Below the pieces are notes generated by a model. The model made no database searches, was not told the DNA's origin, and saw only the letters and a list, made by a program, of their open reading frames with translations. The position numbers and the translations under genes were made by a program. Shown here one piece after another: positions 19,601-64,000 of a stretch of 64,000 nucleotides of DNA. The stretch comes from Amphiscolops sp. MND2022. Taxonomy: Eukaryota. Location: the NCBI GenBank assembly GCA_964187785.1, contig OZ076409.1:30816001-30880000 (forward strand), read 5' to 3'. The first letter of the stretch is position 1; each line of letters starts with the position of its first letter.

Positions 19601-22600
19601 TTTTTAGGACAATAAAAACATTTCATCGAAAAACTCGAATTTTTCATTCAACGGCTGAAAAGACCATAAAGCACAAAATAACAGTCAAAGTAAGGTACGT
19701 ATACCTAAGAACAACTCAACAAAGTAATGTAAGAACATTTAAAAGCAATTGTAGCCAGTTTTAGTATCATAAACTCTTCATTACGTTACAGACTTTTTTG
19801 ACGGCTTTCTCAGCCAAAATGCTGGTTTCTCTCTCACTGGCACCCTGGGCTTGGGCCAATTGTTTGAGCTCCCCACGTGGAATGTACCGCATGCGGTCGC
19901 AAATTTGATGAAACAGGGCAATAAGCTGTTTCCGCAGTGGATCGTAAGGGCCTTTGGATTTCAAAAGTTTGACACGAATCTCGGACGATCTTTTGGCTTT
20001 CTTGGCAAGTGCGTCAACGGGTTCTTCTTTTGGTGGATTCTTCTTCTTGGCCTTCTTCGTTGGCTCGTAATCGTCAACATCCGGAAACGAGTCTTCATTC
20101 GCGAGGGATAGGGTGTCGGATGCGCTATTTTCTTTGTCCGAATCCTCGGTTCTGTTCTCCTCAGCTGCATCTGGGGTCAGTGCGTCTCTGTCATGAATGT
20201 CTTCGTCGCATCAATCTTCAATTTCATCTTCTCCTTCATCTAATTGTTCCTCCACATCCTCCTGAGGATCCTAAACCTCTGTCATGGGGTTTGGGGGGGC
20301 ATTGTCTGCAACATAACAGTTTTCAGGGTCCTCAATCAAGTTTAGTTGTTTGTCGAGAAACTTTATGATTTCTTCATCTGTGGCCGGTTTTAGGTAGTAT
20401 TTGTTTCTTGTGGCTTCAGAATGACCGGTATTTAGTTGGTAAAGGATCGCATCAGTGCCATCCACAAAGTTTGTTTTGTCCGGTAACTGTCCCAGGCTTT
20501 GCGAACGTTGTCCGGGTTGTAAAGCTTGTCATCAAAGGCGAAAAACCGTTTTATGGTCTCCTTGAGGTTCCTTGCTTAAAAAGTGAATTTTTTGTTACTT
20601 GGAGACGGGAAACGCAAACTTTGGGGCCTCCCCATCTTTTTCTTCAACAAATTTTTTGTGAAGGTCTTCGATCCACTTGCGGTTTTCTTCAGTTATTCGA
20701 ATGAAATTGGGGAAGTTGGACCCAGTTTTGTGCTCGAACGTTGTGAGTACTTTCTTATTTTTCATGTCATCAAATTCTTCTTTAGAAAGTTGCAACAAGG
20801 GTCCTATGCGGCAATTCGACTCCGAGTGCACCAGAAAGACGAGCAGGCTCAGATATTCCACATAAGTGAAAGCTTCCTGTGGATGATTTTGCAGCAGTTC
20901 CTTGACCATTTGCCTGAGATGGGCAACTTGATACAGGTTGGGTACTTTGTCAAACCTCTGTATCATCCTGCTGTTGACTTCTTTTGCTAATTTTTTAGCT
21001 GTGTTTCGTAGTAGTGTCCTCCATTCTCCAGTAATCAAGCCAGGGTTGAAACGATATTCTCTCTGCTTGTAGCACTTGCAATACTCAATGAGTCTAGACA
21101 ATTCTAAGAGGATCTTGCGCATGGTTTGAAAGGTGTAATTTTTCTCGGATTTAACCTGGTTGAACACAATCTTCAGGTGCATCGGCTTCCTGAAAAGTTT
21201 CGTCACATCCACAACTCTGATAAGGAAGTTTTTTTGGAAGCGAGTCAGAGGTTGGTCTCCTGCATCAATTCGGTTTTCATCGTACTCTGCGAGTAAGCGA
21301 CGAACTTGGGAGATGTTTCCAGATGGTGTGGGTATTAATTGGTTTGATATTAATTGGAAGTTCGTCCTTGGAATCTGCTCGCACACGAATAATTTGAGGA
21401 TTTTTGCAGGATTTTTTGTGTTTCTTTTTTCCAGTAAAACGTACACAACAACTGTTACACTGATACATCGTAGATGTGCAAATCTGCGTTCTGTGGAACG
21501 TTAAAAGAAATTGTGATCTCTTTTCGAAAGCTGGTGTGTCTTCGTCAGGTGCTGTCTCATATTGGCATAATTCCTGGAGCAAATCAGACAACTCTTGAGA
21601 CGATCCTGCTTCGGGCGTTTTCCTTTCAGAGCCAATTTTTGCATATATCGGAACTTCCTGCGGCTTCATTTTGTTTTGTTGGGCGTAACTGGTGTTGATG
21701 TGGATTGTTCATTCTCAATTGATGGCTCGTTATCATTGTTTGGGACTTGTTCGCCGACAATTTATGCATTTTCGTTGTCTGCTTCTTCTAGCATCTGACT
21801 GGTAACTCGACGAAGCGCATCGTTGGCAATTGGGGAATAACAATGTCCAGCAACTTCTGTGAGGTTCGACAACTCGTCGAAGCCTCGTTCTGACATATTT
21901 GTAGGGAAAGGTAATTTCGAAAATAAGAAATTTTCCAGCAATCAATCTTTGAAATTGTAAAATTTGACAGAGCGTCTCTTACATGTATAGTTTATTTACA
22001 GCTTATTGAAACAGCGACTATACGCAGTGACAATAATGTGCAAACAAGCTCATATGGTAATAATGCTATGACAACTTTGAATGGAGCGCTCTGGTTGGTC
22101 AGAACTGTATCAAATATTAGATTGAACTCACTGCATGAATGACGTCATCGATGCTAGTATTATAATTCCCTACTATTGGAACGTCTCTATTGTCTCATTA
22201 TGGCATCATTGCGTCTCTATAGCCACCTGACTAAAAACGTACCACGAATTGCATATGAAAAACGAACGTTCTTTTTAAATGTAGTTTTCACAGGTAAATG
22301 AAAGTGGTAAAATGAAAAAAATTCAAATCTTTCGAAAAACCTTAGAATTTTTGACTATACTATCCAACTCCCAGTAAACGGCCACAAAGAGACGCTTTAA
22401 CAGACCTCTCCGAATTTTCAGGTGTCGGATCGTCTATGATGAACATGACCGGTATTATGATTTTGGGACTGTCATCAACTAAAAGTATCAACCTACTTCT
22501 TCATTACGATACATATGCCGCAACGAACTAGCAAGATCTTGCTTGTTCGATTAACAGCCAATAAAAACGCGTTGTTATTTCAAATACGCGTTACGTGTTT

Positions 22601-25600
22601 TGCTCGTTACACTGTGTGATTTGGCGTTACGCGTGATGATCAAAATGCAGTAAATGACTACTTTACACTCTCTACAATTACGTACTTTGACTGGTTTCCA
22701 CTTCACACACGAATGGAAGCATCGTTTAGAGTCATGGCCGTTAGAAATCTGAAAGTTTATTGATACTTTTAATTGATGACATTCCAAAAATTGCGTATCA
22801 TATCAACACAGGTGATATCTACCGATGATCTTATTGGTATGACACACAACGGAAATAGTATATTAGGTAATTTTATTCCAGCTTCTTGCCGTTGATTCTG
22901 CCTCGACTGTTACTTAGTCTTCGAGTAATATTCATGCCTATAAACTTCTACAGTTGATACAAATACAGAGTCACTTACAATTTTGAAAAGAACCACAATT
23001 CTGCTGAGATACCTCCTACAAAAAGACAAAAGGCTGAGGAGAAAGTCCCGCTAGTCTGTCATCACCTGGGAACTTATGATAGAGTTAGATAAAGAGCAAA
23101 CAGCATTTATCATGAATTACGTGAGGGCATAGTGTCCAATTTGCCCGACGGAGAAAGAAAATCAAGCAGTGAGTAATCAAGGTGTATGGAAAATAACAAA
23201 CAGTGGGGTAAGGGTGAAAGCAACATTGAGAATATGGGAGTCCTTACTGGTGAGATCAGTCGTCAAATTTCTCATAGACTTGATGAAATAAGGTATGCCT
23301 TGGAATTTCAGATAAAAAACGCTATCAGTTAAGGAGTTCATCAAAGGGTCGTGCCCCAGAATCAGGTCGCAATTGAAACTCTCAGACATACCCCGACAAT
23401 GTGTGCTAACCCAACCAACCCACCACATACCCCCCCCCCCGAGGTCCATGTGAGAAAGCGTACCCCCTTCCCCTCGAGAAAGTGTTTCTTTTTTAACGAC
23501 AGTATGAGACTTTTTTCCGAAATTTTTGCTGTCGCCGAAACGTCCATTCTTAGGTTATTTGAGTTTGTGCAACCAACTGGCTGATGAGAAAGTGCAAAGA
23601 GAAACTCCACTCTTTTGCGTTTTTCGGCACTGTGAGTTTTTATTTATGCTTGCAATGGTCGAGGAAAGACCATTGTTTTTTTTCGGTTTTATGCGACTTT
23701 CCTGAATTTTTGCGGATCATCTGAGTTGCCCCTTAAATTCTTAGCAGAAACAGCGTTTTGAAACCACTAATGGCTCCTTAGATTTTTCGGCACTATGCGA
23801 CTTAACGAAGACATTTGAGAAAATGAAACCAAAAAGGGTAAAAAATTTTTCCCACTCAATTATTGTTTTTTTGAAGTTTTCAGTTCATGAAATTCGTTTT
23901 CCAAGCCTGAAGGATGACATATTCTGTTATTTTTTGGTCTTGTGGGAGTGTTTCCAATACCTGCACAAAAGACCTACGGTTTTATTGGCTCTATGCAATT
24001 TTTCTCGAAAAAATTTCGACTCGGTTAAAGTGATTTGACCCTTTGTTTTCAAAGAAGCTCTTGGCTTGGAAATTCCGTTCTGCGAGTTTAATACTTTTTC
24101 TTCGGAAATTTGAGACTTTTTTCCGTAGAATCCCTTTTTCGAAATTTTTTGGGTTCTCAAAAAATTGGGTTCTCTGATATTTCCAGTTAGAAAAAACCCG
24201 GTTTTCGAGTCGTATGTGCATCCGTTCGTGTATTTTTGGCTCAGTAAATGTGATATAATTTTGACAATCGTGTCCCAATCATGTATTTAAAAAAGTGTCT
24301 TTCTGAGTTTTTCGGCACTTTGAGATTTTGTTTGCATTTCGATTTTTTTCAACATGTACGTTTTTCTGATGTTTTCATTTAAGAAAAAGCTATTTTCGAG
24401 TCTCAAGGGTACTCCGGGTATTTTTGGCACTGTATGATAATTGACAAGTTTCATTAGTTGGTCCCCGAATATTTCAAACACTTCGCTCCTTTTGCTTCTT
24501 GAGCGGGGCTCCGACTTGGGCCATTCCAGGCTTGTTTTCTTTGAAGAGACATATGTTTTCCTTGCTATGGTGGAGCACGGGAAACCTCTGTCAGCCTGAA
24601 GGCAACTTTGTTTTCGACTCTATGAGATTCTTCAGAATTTTAAAAACAGTTCTGAACATGTTTCAAAGACTGCGCTTCTGGGGCTTCAAGTGAGGCGCAG
24701 ATTTTGGCCGTTCAATTCGTAATGTTGTTAGACTTGACTGTGGTTCGGCTCATTTCCCCGACCTTGAGTGTGCCATGTAGTGTAAATCAAGCAAGAAAAA
24801 ATTAAACAGCGCAATACTAGAACTTTTGATGATTAAAAATTTCCCTTCTCGAAAGCGCAGCTTCATGGATTTCAGTCGAATCTGGTCAAATCTCTCAAGC
24901 TGCATTTATAAGATTTCTAGGGTAATGCTTGAGCCATGGCTTGTTAAAGTAAATTTCGTTCATAACGTCAACGGTTAGAAAACATATCCCTTTATAAATT
25001 CAGTAATTCTTCAGCCTTATTAGAAATGTACTAACGTCATTCAGCAATAACGTCCTTGGGATATAACGTCACATTCCGACCCGCTTTTGGCCGTCCATGT
25101 GTCTGGATTACACTACAGTCTCTCCGTGGTAAAAACTTTTCTATCAAATTGTTATTCCATAGGAACGTTATATGTGGGTACTATCAATAACATTATCAAT
25201 GACTGTGAAGCGAATCAGATATCTATAGATATCTATAGATATCTGACTATAGTCAGGTTCATTGTTCAAAACACCTGTTTATGCCGTATTTGCTTTCTTT
25301 ACTTTTTTTGACAAAAATCTAATGTAATGGCATGTTTTCAACTAGAGTATTTTGCATTTCAAATACGATTTTGTTTCAAAGACACGGAGGGTACATCTTG
25401 GACGACTTTCCCCGCAACAGAGATCAGTGGACTGCTCTGCAAGATAAGGAGATTGTGATAGACGAGGTCATCTGCATGCAGGACAACAGCGAGGGCGGTC
25501 GGTACCTGCTCAAGAGATACTACGATCTCAACAAAGAGGAGATCGAGGCCAAAATAACTTTCCGCGTAGAGGAGGAGAAGAGGAAACAGGAAGAAATGGA

Positions 25601-28600
25601 GGAAGCTGTCAGGTTCGTCTTGCATTTCGATGTTATAAACTTCTCGCTATGATAATAAGTAGTATGAGGAATCTCGATCCTGGCCAGTCAGGCAGTTAAA
25701 ACAGTATACTTTCAAGGCAAATCATTAAAAATTAGCCTTTTTGCAACTAAAAAATTAACAGAAAACTTGAAGTTCGTCTAATCATTGAAAATAAGCATAT
25801 TTCCAATAAATATCATTGAAAATCAGCCATTTTTACTACTAAAAAGTAACAAAAATCATTGAACAAGTTTTTTAAATGAAAAATTTCGTTATGAAGGAAA
25901 TTCACTAACTTCTATGGTAGTAATATTATAAAACAATATCAACCACCAAACTTATTTTTCAAAGCCATACCTTCTGCATTCAAATGGTAACACAAGTGTT
26001 CAACAAAATAAACACCACACAAATTTTTAACGCAAAATAATAATTGTTCGTCCACGAATATACCAGAGGGAATAAATTGGAATATTGGCTAAAAACTCTT
26101 TGAAAAATTTTAGTGTAGCATTCAAGTGGAACATGTGCTGAAGCCGAGGAAGGGGGCTGATCTGAAACTAATAATTTCATTTCGTCCCCATTTTCGGCCT
26201 CATCATCTTAATACATGGTAAAAGATAATTTGCTTAATATCTTAACGGGATATCTGAGGGTTTTTTATGCAATCAACCCAGCAATCAGCATCTGCCAAAA
26301 CAGGTGGTTTCTCAATTTTCTCGGAACTGAGTCATCCTACTTAACCGACTCAGGAGATCAAAGTTATAGAATACATCCATACAAACATTTTTATTTCAAC
26401 CATTTTTTCAGTACTCGAACCCAATCTGGAATAGGTATAAAAACAGGCGTGAAAATAGGGTTTTCTTCATTTTTCACCAGACTCGTTGACTCGAAAAGTC
26501 AAGAGACCAAAATTGTAGATACCCAGAATATGAACAACTTTTGACTCTTAACAATTTTTCATACCTTGAACCTGGTGAAATGTAAAATATATCTTCGCCA
26601 ATTTTGAATGATCTCCGCCAAATATATCTCCGAAAATTTTTTATGTTGAATTCAATAATAAATAAATGGAGTGTTGTAGAATTTGAATATATTTGCTTTT
26701 ATCAGATAAAAGTTCTCATCTCAGTTCGAATGACCATAAAAAATAACCAAAGAAAAAAGAGTATTTTGTGGTAAATATATATCTGATCAAACAAGATATT
26801 TCTGAAGTTAATTTCACATCCTAAAAACTCAACAAAGTAACCAGCTGAATCAACAAATAAACCAGCTGAATCAACAGAGAAACCAACAAAGTAACCTGCG
26901 ACATGGCCAAGACGTAGAAATAATTGTGAATGAAAAAAACATACATTAAATTGAAAATAAAACCGATTGATAGTCTCAAAGAATATGTTGATAGTAGTAG
27001 TAAAGGAGGGGGGGGGGGTTTATGAACGTTTTTGGCTCCCAAGCGAAAATTTTCTAAGATAGATTTCTTATGCACGTTTTGGGCTCCCAACCGAAATTAT
27101 TCTAAGATAGATTTCGTGTGCACGTTTTGGGCTCCCAACTCGAAAACTTTCAAAGTCATAAAGCTCAAAGGTCAAACTGATTCTTTATTCAAAATGTGTG
27201 CCGTATGTCAAGCATTATTTACATTGCAAACCGATGAAGCTTCTTACTGCAATAAAAGTGAATAATCTTAGCATTAATGAAAATATGAAGCAGTCCAACC
27301 TTTTCTCTGCTGAACATGAGGCCTGAGGCCATTAAGAAGTAAAAGTAAAGAGATTTTGATAAACAGACAAAGTGAAGCCATGTTCGTTCCGGAAAACTGA
27401 AAAACACAGCGACAGCAGTATCTATGTACTTAGACTCTGGAAATTCCATGGAAAACTCCCATAAAAGGCACCTATGACACCTCCTATCATGAAATTGATG
27501 CAATTGTCCAGATAACGGTTGGCGAAAACGCCATTATTAAAGTATCCTCATTACAAATCAGAAGCGAACTCAGAAGAAAAATCAGAAAATTTGACTACTG
27601 TATTTCGCGAAATACCATTCAATTATTGGCTTGTTCTGTTTGCCACTGATGAAATTCGAGAATCTCAAAAAGAAGGTAATTCCGAGATGCCAGTCAGTGT
27701 TGCAGAGATGCTCGAAACACTAACAAACTCGAATGGTTGTCAGTTCATTTACAGGAAGCACAAAAACGGAGAGAATAGCGATGGTGAACTTAACGATTTC
27801 TGCCAATCCATGCCTTCAAACCACTCTCACATACTGCTCTACATTCCCTATTTTTCTGGAGCCGAGAAGTTGATAAAACAGTCTGTTTCTCAAACGCTAT
27901 CCAATGTACAAAATGCCAAAGTCAAACTACTAACCGTCTCTTACCCAGAAAACTTTATGAAAACGGAAATCTCAATGTTCCACGATGAATCGCTAATTAT
28001 CAGAGGCGAAAGGATGCAGAAGCTAATCAAAGTGAAAACAACTGAGACTTTGGGTTGTAAGTTTGTATCTTCATGGGAATTTGAGAAACACAATTCCCTA
28101 GGAAACTGTCCTGAGAGTGAGAAGGCACTTTACGTTTTCCAGAAACTTTTGCAGCTCGAGAAAAGTGACGCACCTTTCAAAGACACAATAATTTCCTACA
28201 TCGATCTTCTACAACGGGGAATGGGGCGACTTTTCCTTACGGAGCACAGCCGAACGTTGGACATTGACTTGGGTGTTTCAAATACTCAATGCACATGCTA
28301 CGAGTGTCTCTATCAGCCATTACATGAAACACAAGACGACCAAAGCACAAACTCTGAATTTTCTCTCTTCAATGAAGACACTATAATTAATACTTCATTT
28401 TTGTAAAAACTTTTCTAGAAATCAGTTGGATCCAATACATTTCTTTTCACGAAGTGAAAATGTTTTCAGCGCGAGAAATTTGTGAGAACTTTAACGCCGT
28501 AAATTATTTGTTCCCAAGAAACACTACAACTAAAAACGCATTTCTAGCAGTGTGCCGTTATCTGGATGAAAATGTTGATTTGAGAAAAGTCAATGCTTTA

Positions 28601-31600
28601 GCCCAGTCTGGAGGCAAAATAGGACCAGGAGACAGCAAACTTGACGACTACTTTAACTTTTCAAAGATATTGAGATTGCATGCAATTTTTCATGATGCTC
28701 ATGGCTACATGAGAAGTTTTGAGAACGTAGGACCTGGTTACGTTTATACCGTTACAAAAACTCAATCCTTTCGGAATAATATGCTTCTAGGACATGTCTC
28801 CGGAATAGCTTATTGGACGTTTGTCAAACTTTTCCATCGCGAACATTTCGACGCATTCCCTTTCTGAATTTTCATTTCTTACCTTGAACCTCTTTGAGTT
28901 CGGTCGCAACAGAACTAGAGCGAAAACGTTGCATTCGAAACACTAACGATTATGAGCACAATCGATACGTGTCGCAGCAGTGGATATTGTAGCGAGTTGA
29001 CGTTGAACGAAAACCCCCGAGATCAAGAAGATCAACTTGACTACGCTGATTTGTCTGGTCCAAATCTTGAAAGGATAATTTTCGATAACACTGATCAAGA
29101 AAGACCTCCCTTCAACTTCAATTGCTGTGACTCACGCGTGGAGAGATCGTTACTCCTAGTTTTCTTTCATTATGCTATCATACTCGCAGTAATATCTTTT
29201 TGTATAATTTTTCTGTCGCTTTGTGATTCAGAGAGCAAATTTGCATCAGGCGTCTTGGCACTTTTATCAGCTTGCGTTGGCCACGTTTTACCCGGTCCAA
29301 AACGATGAACAAAAGAATCAGCACTAACCCGCATTGCTTCATTTCAGTCGTCGGGCCTGCTGGCTGTGGCAAGACACGCTTAATTGGAAGAATGATTTCA
29401 AACCAAGAGAAAATTTTCCGACCGTCTTTCGATAGAATAATCTATTTTTACAAACACGATCAAGATTCCTACGAAAAACTTAGATTTGAGTGTTCGACTA
29501 AAGCTGTCGATCTTGACCTTGTTCAAGGTTTGGAGTGGAATGCTGTCGAGCGAAGCGAGGCTTTGAAGCAGAGAACTCTTGTTGTTATCGACGACTTGTA
29601 TGATGAAGCTGCTCAAACTAAAGAGTTTCTAGACCTAGTTATTGCTGGACGTCACAAAAACGTACATCTAATGGTTCTGCGACATAACCTTTTTCAACAA
29701 TGTAAAAACTCGAAGACGATCGACCTGAATGTCACTCAGATGATTCTGTTCAACAGCCCGCGAGATTTAGAGCAAATTGGAATCTTGGGTCGTCAACTAG
29801 GAGAGCGATCAACTTTAATGAAGGCATATAAAAGGGCTACGCAGGAACCATTCGGTCATTTGATGATTGATCTGGATGTTCGAAGCAATATAAACTTGAG
29901 ATATTGCTCTCATTGCTCTGCAGACGTACCAACTCATTTTTATTGTGCTACAGATCAACTTTTTGTTTCACTAAACGATGAATTCACAAAATTATTATAC
30001 TCTTGATTTATACCAAAAGTTTTCACCTACCCTGAAAAAGTTTTTTATTCTCCACTGTTCTGATGAGTTAATTAAATTTTTTTGTGATTGCATTTTCAAT
30101 GTAGTGAAGGGAAAAGTGAAACTTGAAAACAACATTCAACGAAAAATGGCTGTGCTTTCACGCGAAAAAACGAACATTGAAACAATTTGCACCAAGAGAC
30201 GCGTCTCTTTGAAACGAAAACGTCAAGTGTTAGGCTCTGACAGAGGAATGCGTTTGCTGAAACTAGTCATTCCGTCAGTTCTGAATCATTTGAAAAATTG
30301 CCATGACAGCAAGCAGTAGCTTACGCGATCTTATTTTAATCACTCACGAGGAGTATATATCCTTGAAGCAACAAGTCAAAAAGCCAGATGCTCGCGAAAA
30401 ACAAAAGCAACATATACTTTCAAATCTGGGTCAAGACACAGACTACCTTCACCGACAAGAAAAAGACATGGATGTTTCTGAACCCTCAAAACAGTCATCA
30501 GAGGACGCTCTAGTAGCCCAGTTGAATTTAAATTCAAGGTATCCCACAGAAAAAGATATCAGCAAAAGCAGTGAGAAAGTGAATGAAGCACGCCAAAAAC
30601 CGTCCGATCTAGTTTTATCGAATTTACTGGAATCTGGCGTCACGGGTGGTAAAGTTGAGAGGTCGAGGCAAATTTTGAAAAAGATTGAAGATTGTGAGCG
30701 AACCACATTAGATGATACCAATCATACCATAATTTTGGATCAACAGGACACTGGAATCAGTGTAGTAGAGTTTCTGTCAGCACTGCAGGTTAATACCAAA
30801 CAGCTACCGAAAAAGTTTTTAACTTTGGTTGAAGTTCTCAGACTTCCTCAATTTTTACTAGCAAACACTTATGCTAGGCATACTAGCAGTCAAAATCAAC
30901 ATCATATTAGACTTGCTGCCGGTGCCTCGCCTTCCAAGAAACTGAAGCTTGATAGCGAAACCGTACCTAATCAGTGGCTTACAAATTTCTGAAAATGGGA
31001 AACAAGAAGTGGGTTTGTGGATCATGCAAAAAAAGTCTCGGCAAAGGTTCCAAGAAAACTCCATCGCTTTGGTGCCACGTTTGCGGATGGATTCACTTCA
31101 AGTGCAGCGGGCTAACAGACAGCAAAGAATATCACGACAATTTTTTGTGTTCACATTGTCGAGAAAGCCGAGTCTTGCTCGATGATGAAAAGGACGGAGA
31201 CTATGCAGCTGCGTTTCCAAAAATTCATGATCACTACACGAATCCTGGAAATACATCAGCTTTTGGGAGTAGACGAAGCTTGATTAAAGCATCAAAGTTC
31301 CGGCCACAAGATGTAGACCGTTATTTAAACTCGAGCGAAACTTACACAAAATTCAAATTACCCCGAAAACGTTTTCCACGGTTGAAGGTTATTAGCTATA
31401 GACTGAACGAAATTTGGTCAATAGACTTGGCAGACATGCAAAAACTGGCAAACACTAATGCCGGCATCAGATACCTATTCGTCGCTGTTGACGTCCTGAG
31501 TCGTTACTTATGGGTTGAACCCATCAAGGTGAAAACGGCCCATGCGTGTAGGGAAGCTTTGAAAAAAATATTCGCCAAGAATGACAAGTCACGAAATCCC

Positions 31601-34600
31601 AAAATTTGTCGTGAAACACACCAACCAGAAAAAATTTGGGTCGACAAGGGTCGTGAATTCTCGGGCGAATTTGCCACTTTTTGCAGTCAACGTGGAATTG
31701 AGATTTATTCCACCAAAAGCGAGACAAAATCTGCTTTAGCCGAAAGAAACATCAGATCTTTGAAGTCGTTAATTTTCAAATACATGCACGAACATGACCA
31801 AAGTAGATATTTTGACAAACTTGATCAATTTGTGGCAATCATTAACAACCGAGTGAACCGTATGACAAAGTTGGCACCGTCTTCGGTTTCACAAAAGGAC
31901 GTCAACTATTTAGTTTCTCTCTGTCACACCAACGCCCAAAAGAAGCCAAAATTCAGAATTGGCCAACAAGTTCGCATTAGGCGCAAGATTGACACTTTTC
32001 ATCGAGGTTACAAAATACAGTTCACGGAAGAATTGTTTAAAATTGCGGCAATACCAACCAACAACCCTCCAACTTATATTGTCAAAGACTGCGACGGCGA
32101 AATTATACAAGGAAAATTTTACGAACCTGAACTCGTGCGATTCGCTCCAAATTGACTGTGTCAACGATGGACGGACTGTCAGCAAGTGTTGAGCATTCAA
32201 GTTGCAACCAAGAATTCACCATGAATCTCATTTCCAATGCTTCTATGGATACTTTTCCCGAAAACACATTGTCCAGTTTTACGACTCTTTTACCGACACC
32301 AATTCATCTTTCCGGCGAGTGGCAGGTGGCTCTACTGGAAATTGCTTGGCCCAATATTATCCAGAATGTGACTGTGGGAGAATTCACAGTATACAAACGA
32401 AACATCCAGTCGCCAGTCGAGAAGCGACCACGCAAGCACAACCGACCCGGTGCCATTTCAATGGCGATTCCTGCAGCATTCGAGCGTCAATCTCCTGCTT
32501 CGACTCTCCCGTTTTACACAGCTCCTGTAAAGCACCGCCTAAAACCGGGATGTTATACATCGGTCGATTCAATTTTAGCATCAATCACAAAAATTGCCAT
32601 GGGAGAAGAACAAATTGGAAGAAAACGAATCTCATCATCCCCTGACAATGTCTTATCACTTTTGTCATGGAAAGTTGACAATGTAACGAGAAAACTACAT
32701 GTTAAATTTTGCGGAAATCACAAACAATATGGGTTGAGAATTTTCACCGAGTCCAATGATTTGCGAAACATTTTGGGCACGAATGTAATCATTGATTGTG
32801 GTGAGTCACAAAAAGAAGCAGTGGAAGAGATCGATACAGAATCTGCATCAAACACAATTGTCAAGCATGTTGGAAAATGGCCAGTTGACTTGAATGCAGG
32901 CAGCCATACCATGTTTTTGTATTGCGACCTCGTGCAAAACCAAACATTGGGCGATAAGCAGACGGCACTCTTGCGATCGATTCCCGTTAAAAGTCTAGCT
33001 TTGGTGCAGACGTTGGGAGAGATGAATCACAAAAGTTTCAGCAATCTGCAGTGGAAACGCGTCATTAAATCGCAATTTCAGTCAATCAACGTCACGCTCG
33101 CCAATGAAATGGGTCAAAAAATTCCCTTCTTGAGTTGCGGTCGCACCAATGTGACTTTGGCTTTTAGACCAACACCTCGACACTGACCAGACATCGTTCA
33201 TTCTGAAATTTGTGAAAAGTACAGTCGCTCAAATTGACCAATTTAATTTCATTGGCTCCGGAATGGATGCCCATTACGATTCACAAATTAAAGCCAATAC
33301 TCACACAACATTCAGTGGACCAGCCAGACAGATGGGATCTGGGGGTGGCATTGGAGCTTTTGCTGTTCGAATGGGTCGTGTAGCCATTCCACTAGTTAGA
33401 AAGTACGTCTTACCTGTAGCAAAACAAGTCGGCAAAAACTTGATAGAAAGCGCCGTTCCGGAAATTGGACAGATTTTGTCAGGCAAGAAAAAGCCCAGCC
33501 GTAAGCTGTTGACTAATGTCGCCAAAAGGGCTGCCATTGAAACTGTAAAGACAAACTTGCCGAGCGGTGTTGCCCTTCGGCCGGGCGGCGGCGTCGGCGA
33601 GCGGAAACCCGGACCGCAGCGGTCGGCGGCGAAGGCAAAGAACGGAGTTACACGAAATGTCAAACAATCATCAGGCAATAGAAAGCGAAGTAATAGTCTC
33701 TCAAGCATTTCAAAAAAAGCGCGCGCCAAGAGAAGTCGGTCCGACATTTTGTCTGAAATTCAATTTTCCCAATAGACAAAAATTCAGAGAATGGCAGCAT
33801 CAGTTAACAACCTCTTTGTGGGAAACTCGACGGAAATTGCAAAACCAGTGACACACAGCGCTCTAGACTATTTCGAAAAGCCTAAAGTAATGATCAATTA
33901 CGAAGGGGCCTACGATCAAGAAGTATTCCCCCATGTTGGTTGTCGCGGACCACAGTTGGATTTTTTTGTTGCCGCTGAAGCAAAAAATTTGATTGACTTG
34001 AATCGCATTGTTCTCAGTGTTGAGGTGGCAATCTATCATGAGGATGGAAAGACAAAGGCAAAACCAGGTGACTTTGATGCAGTTTTTTCCAACAATACCC
34101 TCCACACGCTCTTTTCGCATGCAGAATTGTATCTCAATGGGAAATTGATTTCTCACAGCAACAATTGTTACTTACATTCCGCATTTGTGGAAACTGAATT
34201 AACCACCGACACTGATAGTAAAGCTTCATGGGCCAAATGTCAAGGCTACAATTATTTAGCCAAGTCCAGTGAGAAAGATCAAATGTTCAACAAGCTTGCA
34301 GCTGATTTTGCTCAACTGAAAGAATCCAAAATGCAGTTATGCGGTGCTCTCCACATTGATTTTCTGGATTGCGAAAAACTTTTACTGCCCAATGTCACCC
34401 TACATATTCGTCTTTACCGCTCGCCAAATAACACAATCATCCATCTCAAAGGCACCGATGATGAAGCAAAAGCGCACGACGGAAAACTTTTGGCCATTGT
34501 CGAGAAGGCTTCGCTTTTTGTGAGGAAGGTTGTAGTGACTGACAGTGTTAAATTGTCGATAGAAAGAGAACTGGTGAAAAGCGATGCAATGTATCCGTAC

Positions 34601-36240
34601 ATTGAGAGTTTGAACAAAAGTTTCATTATTCAAGCCGGGCAAAATTGTTTCATAAAGGAAAATGTTTTTGGCACCGAGCCAATTCGACGATTAACTTTGT
34701 GCATGGTTAAAAACTCCTTGTTCCGAAGTACGCCACTAAACGAGTCTCCTTTCTCATACCAAAAGTTCAACTTGCAAAGAGTGGAAATCCAAAGGGGCAA
34801 TGGTGTTCCTTTAGCTGGGACACCATTGGATACTACAAACAATGTGAGATTGTACTACAATACGATTACCGCTCTTGGATTCACCCAAAAGAGTAACGGC
34901 ATCAGCCTTGAGGATTATACAGACAACCATTTTTTTCTCGTGTTCGACTTAACATCAACTGAAGAAGCTAGCAAAACTTTCACACTTTTCCCCGAGCTAA
35001 CGGGATCCAGTTTGACTCTAAAGCTGTACTTTGAGAAAGCACTCGATGATGCTATTGAACTTTTTTTGATTGGAGAGCGATTTAGTCAAGTGTTTATTGA
35101 CTCAGCGCGCAACATAAAGAAAAACAGCCCGTTTGATGGATAATTCAACATTACAGCAGATTGTTCTACAGAATCCACATTTGAAACCAAGCTTTGCTGG
35201 TGTTTGGTCTGCAGACAATTTTCCCAAACAGCCAGGATGGACCGAACAACGGATAATTTTGCGGAGAGGATCAAAACATTCATTGTACTATAGACCTCGT
35301 TTGGTTTGGTTCCAAATTGTCAACACATCCCCATTGGGTGCAGTAGGAAAACATTGGCTGCTACTGGGAGCAGTCTCGACACAAAAGAAGAAAAATCTAG
35401 TTTTTGTTTGGGATTGTCTAGGTCAACCCTTGTCACGTTACAAAATTTTCGCTCAGCGTCTGAAGCTGCTGTACGGAAAGACAGGATTCTCGACAATCAA
35501 CCTGACCCTTCAAAACGCCAGCTCAAATCTGTGCGGGCTCTATTGTCTCTTCATGATTGACTACATTGCAAGGAATCCTACAAAAGCACCTAAGGAAATT
35601 GATCCAAAACTCAAACACTTTACAGAAGTTGAAATTATTCGTTTCATGAATGGTCAATATCATACATTGTTTAGATATACTGTAGTGTAAGACATCTACT
35701 TTTTGAATTTAAACGTTATATACCCTCGCCATTTTGCATAAATAGAAGCAGTATTGAGCTATTAGTTTTCATCTCCGCTACTGGAAGAATAATTCACTAG
35801 TTTAAATTCGGCACTTGAGCAAATTTTTCGTCGTTTCTGAGTTGAATAATACTCTCCATTAAATTGAGAACCATCGTCGTCGTCAGTCGACTCTTGTGCC
35901 TCATAATTAATGAATGGACAATCAAAGTGTGCATCGTGCTGCTCATCAGCCAAGTCGTCAGATAGAGTGTCCCAATCAACAACATCTGGTAATTCTTCAT
36001 CATCGTTAGAGCAAGAAGCTGATTGATTGAAGCCAGGATCGGGGGCATCTAAATTAACAATTAGGTTTATATCAATGGTGAATATAAAGTGATCGATACA
36101 TTTGGAATAAAACGGTACCAACTGAAATTTGTCAAGTCAGATTTTAAAGCTTGTTTCAGAGGACTCGCGTAGCTGGAAGCACGCGATGAGCAGCTGCCAT
36201 CGAGAGAGTCGGCATCAGTATCACTGTCAGAAGTGGGGAC

Positions 36241-36278
<38 letters not shown>

Positions 36279-39200
36279 AGCTCACTGATTTATCACAGTC
36301 ACTAGAAGAGTCCAACTCTTCGTCAGAAGCAACATTGACTAAAACCTCACGCTCTCAATACACAAAAAAATTTTTAAAATTAAAAAACGAAAAATACCTT
36401 GATCTGGAACTGGAATGGCATAATGACCATACGCTAGCGACGCAATCCCATCATTCAATATGTAGCGCTTGTCGTCAAAAGCACTCAATGCTATTTTCTC
36501 GACAGAATTAACAACAATTTGGTGATTGACGGACTTCAGTTGAAACATGGTCTTGGTTACTTGTTCTTTCGAGAGGAGGCACTTTTTGAAAAGATCATGA
36601 TGCAACGTCTTTTTAACAGACTTGGCAACGCCCTTTGCACTCTGTTTCTTTCCGCCCACGAAGTCGATGCTGTACAACTTGGATCTGAGACAGACGACTT
36701 CTCTCAGAACTTTGCCTTGGAGCTCATCCGTCATAGTTAAAGGGACTTTTTTGTTTGTTGGGTCATATAGAAAGTGGTCTTTAGGATAATCAGACAAGTC
36801 GAGAAGGTGTTTGAAACCGGCCATGTCTTGATACAAATTTTCTGTTTCGACGCAATAAAGCAGCGAATCCGTGTCTTTGTAGGCCAATTTCAACTTAGCT
36901 GCAGAATAGCGGGGTACCATTTGCTCATAATGGAATTTGTAAAGCGAAAGTTTGGACAAGTCAAGAATTGATGCTCCCACCGGAGTTGGTTTGTCCCATA
37001 GGACACTGCTCGATTTGAACGATACGCTGACCAGATTTTCATTGACGATATTGAATGATTTGAAAGATGGTTTTTGAATCATTGATTCAGCTTGTTGAAC
37101 GTTTCCCACAAAAGCAATTTTACTTCGCTTGCGCAGATTCTCCATTGTTGTTCCGAAACAAGCGTTGCTCATTAGCTTGAAAAAGTTTTTTCAAAGTCAT
37201 TTTCAGCCTGCTTACGCATGATGGTATTTTTTTCAATGTAGACACCCAACCATTTAATTTGATTAAACTCGCACACACGATGCAGTTTTTCCACAACCAA
37301 TCCATGCTTTACATAAAATTTCAAATTTTCGTAGTGACAGACGTAGTTTTTCTTGTCAAAGAGGGTTTCAATCAGTTTAAGGACTTTGTTCGGCTTCAAG
37401 CCAAAAGATTTAGCGTAAGCAGACAGCCATTGAGGCATAATTTGACGTTTCTCGGGTGCCAAAGGCAAGCCATTGTGAGTATCATGAAGTTCTTTTGGAT
37501 ACAGGAGGTCAACTTCGACAAAGAAACCGACATATGCATCAGCGGGAGTATCGAGAATTTGTTGCAATGTTATCGCGGTGTTCCATTTATAATTGCCTAT
37601 GGGCATCATTTTTTGCATTGTGCCCGCATATAGAGACGTGACATCAAAGAACGCTCCAAACGTTGTAGCTTTGCTAGGGTTGTGATGAGGTAGCAAATCG
37701 TTGTTGGCACAGAAATGTCGAATCTCGCCGACACCATTAACTCCACCCCTAATTCCACGTTCGAAAAACAAAAGTTTGTCAATTTCATCCAATAAGCCCA
37801 ACTTCGCATCCGTTGAGATCAGCATCGCGTCCCAACTGAGGTTCGGAGCTGAGTAGAAATGAGCCGGGTCAAGCTTGTACACCTTGAGACAAACCCTTCT
37901 AAATTTTTCAAAAATGTCAGCTAACAGAAAAACATCCGTTTGCAAGTAGAGATCGTGGTAATCTCCCAGATTCTTACAAGCAAAAGCTTCATAGATAGTA
38001 ACAGCTTCATTGTATTGGTCAGGAGTTATATCCACTGTCCCAGTGAGGGTATTTTTCCAATCAATTCCGAGGGGTGGCAACGGTTCATCAAACTTTTGGA
38101 AGCTGTCCAGAAAGCTGTATGGAAAAAAACCTTTTTTGGTCAGTTTTTCGAACACCTGATCAGGTACACCAGAAAAATGTTGACGAAGGAGTGCAAAATC
38201 GTCAGCCTTCAATGTCTTAGCCAATGATTCCAAACTTTGTGACATGAATTGCAAGCTGTCAAGGAATCGCAATGAATGAAACAGCCTGACAATTCTGTTC
38301 TTTTTGTCAGTGTAGCTTCCCACCGGCATAGATAAGTTAATTGAAGTAAAAGTCTCATCAGTTCTGGCGATTGCTGAAAGTTTTTCACCCTTCTCCAATT
38401 TCAAATTTTTCAACATATGATGCGAATCGTAGCGCGAAAAATTGTGGAAGAATACGGGCAGAAAATTTGTTGTTCTTGCTTGCAGGTTACACTTGGAGTG
38501 GGCCACGCCAAAGACTTTTCCAGACAAATGGCAATGGTGAATCACCCGTGTGGAAACTTCAGCTTCTTTACCGCAGATGCAACACTCGGCAAAATGCACA
38601 TTTAGGATCCTTTCGCGCTCAGCTTTTGGGATTTTGAGCCAACGGAACTTTTGCTTTTCTGAGTAACACCAGACAGACCATTGTCGTAAAGTGTTCAGGA
38701 GCTTCGATATAGAGTTTCGACCACGATAAAAGCACTCTTTCACAACTGCTCCAGCTAAAATTACCAATTGTAGTTGAAATATGGTTGATTAATTGTTGGA
38801 AAATATAAATGAAAACACTAACCCTTGTTATCGACCAGAACAGCACCGTAACTAGCAGGAAACTGTCGCTCAATCTCCCGCGTTTTCGTCGAGAGGCTGT
38901 GGGTTTCAGTTTGACAAACATTCAATGCCTCCAAATCAGCGTACACAACAAATGGACACTGCTGTGTTTTCTGCCAATTCACAAACTGGAGTAATCGGTC
39001 GTCTTTCGGCATTAGGATTTCCAAAGGATCGTTGGATTCACAAAAAGTGGAATGCCTGGCCATATTTTGTTTCAAAACTGGTTGGAAACAATTCCTGCAG
39101 AATCGACTTTTCGGACCAGTTGACCTTTTCCGCGGAGAGCGAGAAAGATGATGAATAAGGTTTGAAAAGTTTTTGATGAGACAATAGTGACTCCGTTTCC

Positions 39201-42200
39201 CTTCAACCAATCGCAAAAGATTAACTTTTCTTCTGTGACTTTTGTTTTTGCTACTGTAGATATTGATCAATTTTCTCCCATCTAACTGATAGACATTGAT
39301 TGAGCATCGGTTTCTAACTTCAAAGGATCGAATACCAGAGAGTGGCATGGGCATTTGTTTTGCATTAAAATGTAGCTTATGCACATTTTCCAAATGTGTT
39401 TTGGGTCGAAAGGCACGACCGACGAAAGAGAACAGCGCCGCGGCAACACAATACAGGAAGCAGAAATTGTCCTTTTTATTGACTATATTCAAAAGGCTTC
39501 TTTTCAATTTCTGCAGAATAGGGGGCGTTTTGATGTAGGAACCAGCAACCACAGTAGCACATTTTGCAGTCTTGATTTCAAATCTCTCCATTTTTTCCAC
39601 AACCCAGCCTGAGCCACCAGTAGCAAACACGTTGAGTTGGCTCATCAGTTGATCCAAGTGCTCCAAGAACTCCTCTTCAGTAAATTCCAGCGATAGCTTG
39701 GCCATGCTTGAATTGAAAAAAGCTTCGGTCGAATCGTCAACTAAAGGTTTGCGTAAACGCACGCTCATTGAAAACCCCATCTTCATGTTGCCTTCAACCT
39801 CCAAAATCGAGTTGACAAATCCCATAATTTTGTCTTTCAATGAAATCAAGCAATTGAAAGGTTCAATAAACAACGACTCCCCAAGTTTCAATCGATGAAT
39901 TTGGAAATGTGATTTCAAAGCTTTTGTTGAGAATGCGATAGTTGAAACATTTTCTGGAAGAGAGCGTTTGACGTTTCCAGTGGAATGCAACTCCTTCTCA
40001 TGCGTAGAAAGAGCTGTAGAGCAACCATAAAAACTGGGACATGTAGAACATCGGAATTGGTTTGTCATTTTATGGACGGAGCGTAAATGCCTCAACAAAT
40101 TCTTTGATTGGGTGAAACCTGTAGGACAGTGTTCACAGTGGAATATTTTGGTGCTCTGTTCAATATTTCCATGTTTTGTTTTCATATGATTGCTTAAAGC
40201 TCGCTGGGAAGCCAAAATCTTCCCACAATGTTGGCATGAAAAATTCATTCCAGAGTGAAACCTTTCAAATATTCACGGTGCCATTCCATATCAAGTTGAA
40301 ATTTCTCAAGATAAAAAAGAGCAGAAAACGTACTAGGAAATTCAACTACTTTTTTGAAGGAGAATGGCACCGTGAAGGAAAATTTGAGACAGTTTAGCTT
40401 TTCAATTTTCCGGAACAGTAAGAAATCGTAATTATGGGCTTTTAAGAGCGAAGATTTTCATTCACTTGTGAGCTCTGATTAAACATTCGATTTCTTTCAA
40501 AGTTTGTCCAAACGGTACTTTTCTATTCTATCTCTGTGAGAATGTCATGAAAGGACAGTCAGCAGTCTTCTGTATCAATAAGATTCGAAATCTTTCTAAG
40601 TTAACGTTTCTCTTGGTATAGAAACCATTAAGAAACCTTCATCGCTTTGCAATGTAAACAAAGCTTGACATATGGCACACATTTTGAATAAAGAATCAGT
40701 TTGACCTTTGAGCTTTATGACTTTGAAAGTTTTCGAGTTGGGAGCCCAAAACGTGCACAAGAAATCTATCTTAGAATAATTTCGGTTGGGAGCCCAAAAC
40801 GTGCATAAGAAATCTATCTTAGAAAATTTTCGCTTGGGAGCCAAAAACGTTCATAACCCCCCCCCCCCTCCTTTACTACTGTTGATAATTTGTTAATAAG
40901 AAAATACTTCTGCCGATAAAGGTTTCAATTAAGTATTTAGCTAATTTTTCGAATTTCTTTATTATATAAAATCATAGATTTCACAAATGGTTAAAATCAA
41001 ATTTGAATTACAATCACACGGATCAAAATGTTCATCAGTTGATCATGGAGAACTTAGACGATGAAAATTTAGAACGATCATGTTTTGTACTTCAAATTAT
41101 TAAATATGTTATATTAGAAATATAAAAAGTCAATGATATTCAAGTTTCTTCTTGGGTTGAGTTACCAGTAAATTATAAAAAAAATTAGTCAGTTATAATA
41201 TTAAAAAATGAAGAGCAATTTTGTTTTTGTGGTGTATCTTAGCTCATCTTCACCCGGTTGAAGATCATAAAAGTAGAACTTCAAAATATGCTATGTATTT
41301 GCCTACTTTGTGTGTAGGTGATTTAGAATTCCTTATGAAAGCGAAGATTTACCGAAGTTTGAAAAACTTTATAATTTGAATGTAAATGTCTTTGAATTTG
41401 TCAATTCCTTTTTGTCACCAGTCCATAATAAAAATTTTGAGTAGAACAAATAGACTTATCATTGTATGAAAATCACTATTGTCTAGTAACAAAATTACAG
41501 ACTGATAAATACAGATTCACACACGAAACATGTATTTAGAAGTTGTTTAACAGCATTTAGTTCACAAGCGATCCTAAAAGATCGTATAAAAAGATGTCAG
41601 AAACAACAACCAACCAAATCAGTTTTCGTTGGAAGGATCATCTGACATTTGAAGACTATCACATGAAAATACCAGTACCAATAAGAGTTCATGCAGATTT
41701 TGAATGAATTACCCAACCTCAAGATAACCACAAGGTGCTATTCACACAACATCCGGTTGCTGTTGGTTATTCTACAATATCACCATTCGGAAATCATCAT
41801 TACTCTTATTTTGCAACAGATTGTAAAGAATGGTTTATAGAAAGAATGTTAGAATTAGAAAATTTTGTCGAGCAAGTCCTTCGATACCAATATACCACTG
41901 CAAACAACTCCTCAAGAGGATGTACAATTCCCAGATGCTAAAGTGTGTTGGTTGTGTGGAAATTCATATGAGGAAGATAAAATTCGAGATCATGATCGTC
42001 TAACAGGAAAATACAGAGAAGGAGCTCATAATTTATGCAGTCTCTACTGTTAACAAAAGTTCAAATTTTGTTTCCTGTATTTTTCACAACTGTTCTGGGT
42101 ATGATTGTCTTTTAAATTTGGAGTAACTCTACCGAATCATTCAATCAAAACTATAATTCAACGATAATACCTAAGAATTTAGAAAATTATGTATCAGTCC

Positions 42201-45200
42201 ACGTAGGTTGCTTGCGTATCCTGGACAGTTACCGATTTTATTCTATTCTACAAAAACTAGTAGTATCTCTGGATACCTTTAGGTATATGGATTCCGAGGG
42301 TTTATTTGATATCTTATTCAAGAGAAAAATAGCCTATCCTCATGAACACTTTAATCTGAAAAATATAAACCAACCATTAAACCTAACCTAAGAACACTTG
42401 GTCAACACTAAATCAAACATATCCTTCTGACAATGATATAACACGTCCAAATGAAATTATTCGAAAATGTGAAACAAAGAATGGACAAGAACTTACTTTG
42501 AAATACCTAAAAATGGATGTTCTTCAGTAAACAGATATTTTTGAAAACGTCGTGGAAACATCTACGCAACAATATGGCATCAATCCATCGTACAGTTACG
42601 AGTTACAATTTTCATACGAGTCATGCGTCATCATACGGCTCAAGATAAAACGTATATGCGGTATTATACGTTTTTCAGCCAAAATTGCAGTATTTGAATG
42701 TCATGTAGTTATGCATCATCAAACAGCATTTGTGGTGTTTAATATGTTATTTTGCAGTGCTTTTCTAGTGTCTTTGGACCATTCAGTCATATTTGCATCA
42801 TAGTGGGTGTGTGTTATCGATATGAATAGAATGATGTAAAGTTGACGTTATTAAGTTTTTGTTTTTTTTAGGATTCTTTGACATTTGTAAAAGTGCTTCT
42901 CATCCTTTGTAATTTTGAAAAAGAGAACCAGAAAAAGAGACGATTCACATCAAAAATAACTCCCGTCAAGAGCAGTTGATCTAATTTCTACAAGCCTCTG
43001 TTAACCTTCTTCAGTTTTTCTTGTCTTTTCTAAGTTTGGATTTCCAATTTGAAAAGATAATTCAAATTCTTCCCCAGCAAATGTAACTTGTTTTCTACTA
43101 AACAAGATGGGAAATAAGAGTAACCGAAGGTCGAGGAGCCTAGGAACTCCTTTTCCTGACAGAGAAACCAGCTGAACTAGAGTTGATTCTCCAGAAACAG
43201 GTGAAAAAACTTTAACTGGTTCTAATTTGATTGTTCGAGAAATTTTTGGTGAACCTAACTTAAGAAACCAGCTAAGGGAGCCCAGCCAAATTAGAGACGA
43301 GTTACAAGTTTGGACACAAATCATCGAACGAAAAAAGTACTGAGAGGGTAGAAAAATGAGAGGGGAAATGGACAATACACTAGACGCAATTCTGAGAGAG
43401 ATAAAATCCTTTAAAAGTGCATCAACAGTAACAAACCCAAGGTCTGAAATTATTGGCACACAAAATATGCAACCTTCGGGATCCAAAATCGACACGTCTA
43501 TCGGAGTGCACGCATCTTATAACAATAATTTAAACTCAGGAGATGAGGATTATCCTCTTCAAACCTCCAAAATGAAAGATCTTAGACATCCATCCAAAAC
43601 ATTTCATTGAAGTGAAATGAACTTAGACGAAACACTAGTGTCATGAGAGGACTCTGGGGAAGAGGATTATCACTTTAGGTTGATAAAATTATGTTTAGGT
43701 GGATGAAATTAAACATGTGGCGACCGTGTGGTACCCTAAATTGCTTGGGGAACATGGTTTGCTGCGTAATTTTAGTAATTGGTGGTAACTCGGGCGTTAT
43801 AGTAATTTTTGGCTCTGTAAAGATCTGTACCGATTCGCGCAGAAACCTTCAAAAAACTTTGTCTTTATCCCAATCAACTAATCTCATTTCAAAACTGTAT
43901 TTACGTCTTGTTAATTTTCGACAAATCCTGGAGTATCTGTCAGGATGTGTACAGACTCTGCATGGAGTGCTCAACATGGGTAGTGATGCCACTGCCATTA
44001 TGCGTCAAAACAGAAACGATTTTTTGAGATGGTGTTTGGTATTTGCCAGGGTTCAATAAATCAACCAATTTTAGCTTTTTGTTGCATTGTTTTACTGGAC
44101 TTATAATTGTCGACTCCAAAATTTCAGTTTATTAGAATCATGAAAAGTTAGATTAAGTTTTAGTTGAATAAGTTTTGAAGTCGTAGAAGTTTTTGAAGCT
44201 TCTAAATTTGACAGGAATCAATTTTAGTGATGGAGCAATTAGGAGTACAGAAGTGTTTTAACCATTTTCACTGCTGTTTTCAAACTTTACTTGAACGCTT
44301 GTTTCCAAAGTTGCGTAAAGACGCCTCTTTTTTGAGCGTTAATCCATATCCACAAGATGACTCAAATATATCAGCTTCATTCGAAAAGCTTTCAAAATTT
44401 TTGGTGGCTTTCAACTTGTTCCTATTCCAACCAGTTGTCCACAGAAAAAAAAGAGCGTGTTGATGATTGGTTTTGATTTGTAGGAAAGCAGCGGAAGAAG
44501 AAGAGATTAGACGCCGCAAAGAAGAGGAGGAGGCAGCGAGATTGTTGGCTGAAGAGGAAGCTGCTAGGAAAGCGGCCTTGGGGGAAACCGAAGACGACGA
44601 AGAGGGAGGAGGTATGGAAACAACAGATGCAAAAGATGAAGGTTATATATCCACTTTATACCCCAGAGTGAAATTTCAATCATGATTGTATCAAAATATT
44701 TCCTCTTTGAATTAATCTGTTTTCGTCGAATGTGCACTCTCTGTTGTCTCTATTGGCCGGAGAAAACGGTCCGGCTCAACTTCTGATGGTCAAAAGTTTT
44801 GACCACCACTAATTTTAGGTTACAGGTTACATGACATTTCGTCCTATACACTTTCAACCTATGCATTTTCAACCGCTCACAATTTCAACCTATTGCATTT
44901 TCAACCGTCCGCAATTCGACCTTTATTAATTTTGGCTATTTAGTCTTAATTCGGTTGAGCTATTATTTCAATTAATGGTAATTGTTCATGAAGAAGCCAA
45001 AATTCGTCAAAATTGGCGTAAAAATTAGCACATTTCAATTTAGAAATGTATGAAAGTTAAAACCACCAAAATAATTATGTAACTAATTAGGATCCATTAG
45101 CCAAAATTAGTTTAGGTCGAAATTGCGGACGGTTGAAAATGCAAAAGGTTGAAATTATGAGCGGTTGAAATGGCAACGATTGAAATTGCATAGGTTGAAA

Positions 45201-63800: not shown

Positions 63801-64000
63801 ATAAAACCTCACTATGCTGACACAATGCAGATGTTTTTTGACATAGTTTTTTTCCTATGGCAGTAACAACTGTGCAATTAGTTGATGTAGTTTTGTAGTT
63901 TTTGAAGCATCATCGTAAATCAAAACAAATTAGGGCTTGGATCTCACGAAGAGAATGCGCAAAGTAACTCCACTGAGCAATTGTTTGTCACATGGAAACA

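Follow-up and report, generated by a model that had tools for sequence, protein, structure and literature searches.

When the polymerase gene of an integrated virus-like element is interrupted at several points, is the gene dead or is it spliced? A Polinton (Maverick) element of Amphiscolops sp. MND2022 raises this question. It occupies positions 26993-40880 (13,888 bp, between GTTGAT target-site duplications) of a 64,000-nucleotide stretch of contig OZ076409.1 (assembly GCA_964187785.1, positions 30,816,001 to 30,880,000 of the forward strand), hereafter the window, and its DNA polymerase gene, pPolB, lies on the minus strand in five pieces separated by three gaps and one frame break. A preliminary description of the window had recorded a polB frameshift as the only clear lesion. 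That account does not hold, since we find three intron-like gaps, one frameshift at about 37185 and a substitution in motif B. We favor a model, with a probability of about 0.77, in which this is a young integrated Polinton and the three short GT-AG gaps in pPolB are likely spliceosomal introns inherited within its family, so that the element would depend on the host spliceosome for its replication enzyme.

Three predicted introns in the polymerase gene

From its 5' end, the predicted gene is organized as follows.

38823..40248, minus strand: pPolB predicted exon 1 (C2H2 fingers and N-terminal domains, with the beginning of the exonuclease)
38755..38822, minus strand: predicted intron 1, 68 nt, GTTAGT..TTTAG, phase 1
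36398..38754, minus strand: pPolB predicted exon 2 (exonuclease and polymerase core)
36339..36397, minus strand: predicted intron 2, 59 nt, GTATTT..TTTAG, phase 1
36123..36338, minus strand: pPolB predicted exon 3 (rich in Ser, with no stop in the phase-1 frame)
36049..36122, minus strand: predicted intron 3, 74 nt, GTTGGT..TTTAG, phase 1, with CTAAT 16 nt before its end
35765..36048, minus strand: pPolB predicted exon 4 (acidic tail, beginning at a conserved PDPG motif)

The gene matches the PolB family of Pfam (PF03175, E 5.7e-10), is colinear with full-length relatives and, summed over its exons, comes to about 1,430 codons, compared with 1,401-1,457 residues in full-length intronless relatives. 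All three gaps are GT-AG, in phase 1 and frame-breaking if unspliced, and their AT content is 72-76% against 50-59% in the exons. The features of a U2-type intron (GT donor, AG acceptor, in-frame junction and AT-rich body) are thus present in each, and host donors in the window likewise begin with GTT or GTA. A branch-like motif lies near the acceptor in intron 3 only, those of the other two introns being 38 and 45 nt upstream. As to the TP-vOTU domains described for the pPolB N-terminus, exon 1 and the intronless relative P0211 show Cys and His motifs by eye, and Pfam is blank for that stretch. A triplet repeat of 13.7 copies (36242-36282) encodes a poly-Ser run in predicted exon 3.

Intron 1 was read as DNA in the window and at a second locus, L005, and introns 2 and 3 in the window; sisters and families were compared as predicted proteins, with 43 distinct proteins of at least 85% identity to a window pPolB piece counted as sisters. 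Loci L009-L011, which match over 35 residues only, were left out.

At intron 1, alignments to intronless relatives break off at 38824 and pick up again at 38755 without skipping a residue (P0211 478/479, P0212 472/473, P0215 476/477); in P0213 three residues are left unaligned. A GT..AG pair of the length of intron 1 in exact register occurs at 14 of the 4,284 positions of the pPolB gene (217 of 4,284 for a loose pair). At L005, whose polymerase is 63% identical in amino acids, a 111-nt GTTGGT..TTTAG phase-1 intron interrupts the same codon; it holds a stop, and its body is unlike that of intron 1 in the window. None of the 43 sister proteins reaches into exon 1, and the six with a start upstream of 38700 all begin at 38743. 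On this sequence evidence, the first gap is almost certainly a spliceosomal intron.

The evidence for intron 2 comes from 20 sisters whose sequence extends as far as the exon-2 end. Eighteen continue with Gly and two with Ser, both of which fit a retained GT, and beyond this point the 20 proteins have 17 different tails, each 6-20 residues long. Families at 74-77% identity end likewise at this site, and the second gap is very probably an intron as well. For intron 3, the PDPG motif follows directly after the AG and recurs in the single-ORF (open reading frame) polymerase tails of P0212, P0359, P0496, P0372, P0383 and P0392, the last of which matches exon 4 at a BLAST E of 1e-5. In a profile-free search with the exon-4 piece, PDPG is found in seven of nine cluster representatives and similarity begins there; in six of these seven, L, S or T followed by G, A or D stands directly before PDPG, as expected from an AG acceptor. 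These data make the third gap a probable intron too. Across sisters and related families, ORF ends indicate the same three gap sites, and among 8,000 candidates scored no protein longer than 942 residues is closer than 63%, as expected if every copy is split. Polymerase relatives in viral_contigs are 34-35% identical and lie in a single reading frame.

The other two defects appear to belong to this copy. The frame break near 37185 falls in a homopolymer run that 20 of the 23 sisters reaching it read across, which rules out a programmed shift at this point, and none of the eight listed sisters that cover the motif-B site near 37150 has the substitution. Both are true lesions of this copy unless they are assembly errors, and because of them it likely cannot replicate alone.

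Origin of the introns and rival explanations

To place intron 1 among relatives, we used a tree of the exon-2 core built by a quick method from 46 rows, 16 of them bearing the intron, 19 spanning the site and 11 unlabelled. Labels were taken from ORF starts and upstream residues, with the window and L005 alone checked as DNA. The intron-1 label changes twice on this tree, compared with a mean of 11.8 changes for shuffled labels, and none of 500 shuffles was as low. A single clade of intron-1 bearers was rejected in a 23-row tree, also made by a quick method (p-AU 0.002), because the intronless P0211 and P0340 nest among the bearers. One gain followed by one precise loss is the simplest reading; two gains at the same site are a possible alternative. 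At two further loci, L007:2832 and L008:2381, whose pPolBs are 47% identical, a different GTAAGT..CAG gap with an in-frame stop lies further downstream, and splitting of pPolB therefore arose more than once. The nearest named relative is a protein of the acoel Convolutriloba macropyga, at 53%, and on this one named cluster the host is likely an acoel.

Several points weigh against the model we favor. Splicing is inferred from sequence, and what sisters and families contribute is predicted protein rather than DNA. Exon 3 has no significant similarity to any relative, exon 4 matches P0212 weakly (E 0.06), and the tail motifs are missing from 81 of 86 long pPolB matches. Lastly, with intron-1 bearers not forming one clade, a single gain also needs a precise loss.

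Two other mechanisms were considered for the gaps and rejected. Programmed frameshifting at gap 1 is ruled out by the 68 extra bases between consecutive residues, and group I or II self-splicing introns by the size of the gaps (59-74 nt) and by 0 Rfam matches at the gathering score. The gaps could instead be decay insertions in an intronless Polinton whose polymerase was broken after insertion, the last piece being a separate small gene or junk. Polinton core genes have been described as intronless, many sisters are fragmented, a real frameshift accounts for one of the breaks in this copy and exon 3 is without homology support, all of which would agree with this idea. A decay insertion should, however, be private, whereas gap 1 is common to all informative sisters; the gap in L005 shares its codon and phase with gap 1 but not its sequence; and the three gaps are all GT-AG in one phase. 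We consider such decay highly improbable. A more limited departure from our model accepts introns 1 and 2 and lets the polymerase end near intron 2, with the acidic last piece made separately or by alternative splicing. The ORFs of some relatives (P0211) do stop directly after the polymerase core, and the tail is missing from most distant pPolBs (81 of 86), but core and PDPG tail share a single ORF in six relatives, and in this copy the exon-4 frame has no ATG upstream of PDPG and conservation begins at the acceptor. We think this very unlikely.

Two further alternatives concern the competence of this copy and of the family as a whole. If the homopolymer frameshift and the motif-B change were both long-read assembly errors, the copy would be whole and the element a competent latent virus. 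All structural genes are indeed open, and at this homopolymer run at least six other proteins, of a sister and of several distant families, also terminate or change frame. Against this, the motif-B change is a substitution, present in 0 of 8 sisters, and the copy carries three further private residues that fit slight neutral decay; an intact virus at this locus is unlikely. It is also conceivable, if somewhat doubtful, that the family spreads only within the genome as a transposon, makes no particles and keeps its capsid genes open merely because it is young. The family is seen here as sequence, and the gain of introns would point to a long stay within host nuclei. On the other side, full-length capsid is kept across families that are 40-88% identical, which would imply long purifying selection.

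With family-inherited introns as the preferred explanation, we envision two convergent units transcribed by host RNA polymerase II. The plus-strand unit would yield the packaging, integrase and capsid proteins from intronless genes, and three splicing events in the minus-strand unit would give a polymerase about 1,430 residues long. In line with the established model of other Polintons, replication by this polymerase would start at the ends of the element, and insertion by the integrase would leave a 6-bp duplication. The copy studied here would likely be non-autonomous, assembly errors aside, and sister copies could supply polymerase in trans. A bolder extension, quite unlikely in our judgment, is that an old animal Polinton radiation consists of spliceosome-dependent, capsid-making viruses in which pPolB introns, retained at fixed sites in many families, have also been gained and precisely lost, and in which splicing of these frame-breaking introns acts as a replication switch set by host cell type, for example the germline, as in the P element.

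The element, its family and its surroundings

The ends of the element, with its terminal inverted repeats (TIRs) and target-site duplications (TSDs), are these.

26987..26992, no strand: left TSD, GTTGAT
26993..27249, no strand: left TIR (AGT-repeat end, G run, 2.8 x 48-bp subrepeat)
40626..40880, no strand: right TIR
40881..40886, no strand: right TSD, GTTGAT

The element is a member of the Polinton/Maverick group. A published definition gives TIRs of 100-1500 bp, a TSD of 5-8 bp and a length of 13-25 kb in its accessible text (10.1101/2023.08.22.554363), and the size and ends of the element fall within each of these ranges. Its compactness (13.9 kb) and the perfect 6-bp TSD had been noted in the preliminary description and are borne out here, as is its estimate of about two TIR mismatches over the outer 200 bp or so: the repeats (26996-27249 against 40626-40880) are 96.5% identical, with nine differences in 255 alignment columns, two of which are mismatches in the first 200 positions and seven fall in the inner 55. 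The 48-bp repeat is present in 2.8 copies in each TIR. One extra AGT unit stands at the left end (26993-27001) relative to the right, for which slide-back protein priming might be the source. No second copy of the element was found by blastn within the 64-kb window.

Eleven ORFs lie head to tail on the plus strand (27687-35690).

27687..28406, plus strand: ORF of 239 residues, 5' end uncertain, frame open from 27516
28460..28867, plus strand: ORF of 135 residues, identical on 12 contigs
28952..29308, plus strand: ORF of 118 residues, hydrophobic C-terminal half
29305..30006, plus strand: A32/FtsK-like packaging ATPase, Walker A and B present (Pox_A32, E 1.9e-6, above cut-off)
29978..30319, plus strand: ORF of 113 residues, identical on 11 contigs
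30303..30992, plus strand: ORF of 229 residues
30995..32155, plus strand: rve integrase, D-D-E motifs present (rve E 6e-11)
32167..33186, plus strand: likely minor capsid protein (Atlas features and position in the module)
33263..33775, plus strand: basic ORF of 170 residues
33791..35143, plus strand: double jelly-roll major capsid protein, 450 residues
35136..35690, plus strand: Ulp1/adenain-like cysteine protease, His-Asp-Cys motifs present

The structural model of the major capsid protein is a double jelly roll (pLDDT 84.7) that PBCV-1, EhV and virophage capsids match at E of about 1e-14; no capsid relatives were found in viral_contigs. Peptidase_C48 is above the Pfam cut-off for the protease and C5 is weak. 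The minor capsid protein has Atlas feature matches of 0.97-0.98, including the Sputnik V18/19 cluster, at a recognition value under threshold. Capsid, ATPase, protease and integrase genes had all been described as open, and they are, though the call of the minor capsid gene rests on Atlas features only. At the N-terminus of the integrase (30995-31180, plus strand) there is a weak PHD-like finger (best E 0.003 to PDB PHD fingers; Pfam PHD E 0.021, below cut-off), which could read chromatin to choose sites. The GPG..HD motif of the 135-residue ORF recalls, by eye, what we take to be a viral PLA2; the ORF has no Pfam or PDB match, and its low-confidence model (pLDDT 57.5) gives no fold match. Judging from their sequences, the 118-residue ORF is possibly a membrane protein and the basic 170-residue ORF possibly a core protein. 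The first frame (27516-28406) gave no usable Atlas or Pfam match. An open frame of about 70 codons (27435-27650, plus strand) overlaps its start, and the 5' part of this ORF may be broken, by a frameshift or by an extra exon at the overlapping upstream frame.

We gauged copy number by exact protein look-ups across contigs. At 90% identity the capsid falls in a cluster of 56 members, and proteins of the element recur unchanged on other contigs (the 135-residue ORF on 12, the 113-residue ORF on 11, the protease on six, the minor capsid protein on five and the integrase on three), with sister proteins of 95-100% identity on up to 12 contigs. The capsid and ATPase alleles private to the element are each found on one contig, which suggests that the remaining contigs represent separate loci and not repeat deposits of this one. 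From 13-14 sisters listed and compared per cluster, 8-13 are full-length, and over eight structural and accessory proteins (1,958 residues) three residues of the window are common to no listed sister. A recent insertion, as first proposed, from a young multicopy family is upheld by these unchanged proteins and the three private residues, and protein sequence thus points to a young multicopy burst with slight decay.

The flanking features that bear on the insertion site are the following.

25382..25612, plus strand: AK9 exon of the host, lying upstream of the element and followed by a GTTCGT donor at 25613
44484..44641, plus strand: likely next AK9 exon, phase-compatible with the upstream exon
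41040..42600, plus strand: older, heavily decayed Polinton-type pPolB (26-43% amino acid identity to full-length relatives, E to 4e-20)

The host intron around the element spans 25613-44483 (18.9 kb). Its assignment to AK9, an animal cilia gene, was made previously and stands for the upstream exon (PDB 9d2f, E 1.9e-10) and less so downstream, where three exon candidates, including 44484..44641, have no AK9 match in PDB and owe their assignment solely to splice phase and composition. The host exons lie on the plus strand, as do the structural genes of the element, a co-orientation already noted, and the pPolB introns are antisense to AK9 and therefore not AK9 splice sites. Insertion in an AK9 intron is in itself ordinary. 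What had been overlooked is the remnant of an older polymerase adjoining the element, from which it seems likely that the young element landed in or beside an older decayed Polinton. An AT-rich open frame of 110 codons (26212-26544, plus strand) directly left of the element has no Pfam match and may belong to the older one. Elsewhere in the window are a decayed major capsid fragment of another Polinton that runs off the window end (63297-63998, minus strand), ORFs like those of a long interspersed element (LINE) retrotransposon, with PHD-finger and endonuclease (4676-5875, minus strand), and a cluster of open frames of 301, 147 and 143 residues without Pfam match (19770-21708, minus strand), the first of which, by eye, we presume to resemble a tyrosine recombinase.

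Relation to known systems

As far as the accessible text of the reports cited in this section goes, the element is like vertebrate (PMC8097293) and nematode (10.1101/2023.08.22.554363; 10.1101/2022.07.12.499685) Polintons in its TIRs, 6-bp TSD, length of 13.9 kb, genes (pPolB, rve integrase, ATPase, protease, major and minor capsid) and two modules pointing inwards. It differs in that its ATPase lies beside the capsid module and not pPolB, in the weak PHD-like N-terminus of its integrase and, above all, in three predicted pPolB introns where theirs are intronless core genes. In intact vertebrate Mavericks ORFs are intronless and "No introns were observed" (PMC8097293), and in nematode Polintons the core genes are intronless and cargo genes have introns (10.1101/2022.07.12.499685). 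Endogenous viruses have been assumed to be without introns and were annotated with prokaryotic gene callers (PMC10120064), endogenous mavirus-like elements (EMALEs) are reported to have none (PMC8547959), Polinton-like viruses (PLVs) carry group I introns (PMC12220804), and TP-vOTU domains have been placed at the pPolB N-terminus of Polintons (PMC11161782). The comparison also took in PMC5718144, 10.64898/2026.07.28.741278 and 10.64898/2026.10.13.758929. In a search mostly without subscription literature, Repbase and supplements, no paper turned up that describes conserved spliceosomal introns for the polymerase of an animal Polinton.

Likeness to alpha adintoviruses was judged without Mayetiola or Terrapene reference sequences in the tree; the small gene whose motif we take, by motif only, to be PLA2-like is one feature to set beside them, and named pPolB matches in beetles and coral are at 38-42%. 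An animal host and a PF03175-type PolB are found in both, and the main text on these viruses, in its accessible part, mentions no spliced PolB (PMC8502044). Dinoflagellate maverick-polinton-like elements contain introners (PMC11957031), so that introns lie inside full-length Polinton-like elements in both systems. Those introners, however, are young intron-making transposon copies mostly gained after integration, whereas here families at 55-78% identity retain the sites, and the two intron-1 sequences seen are dissimilar.

Intron-split Polinton polymerases can be mistaken for dead genes: surveys that score intactness by open intronless ORFs (PMC8097293) or use prokaryotic callers (PMC10120064), as described in their accessible text, would count every such copy as dead. 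The introns would also be simple reverse-transcription PCR markers that tell RNA from DNA and would ease tests of animal Polinton expression and virions. If our model is correct, same-codon introns across diverged, still-spreading families would show long-term expression of the replicase through host nucleus and spliceosome.

Dependence of this kind has precedents outside the group. The adenovirus E2B polymerase and terminal protein and the Drosophila P element are cases in which enzymes of nuclear mobile DNA are made via host splicing. Adenoviruses have short leader exons and no integrase, and P-element splicing is germline-regulated. Both share with our element a replication or transposition enzyme that depends on host splicing, a dependence that here is predicted. 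What would be new, on present sequence evidence, is a spliced, family-wide polymerase structure within the Polinton/Maverick group.

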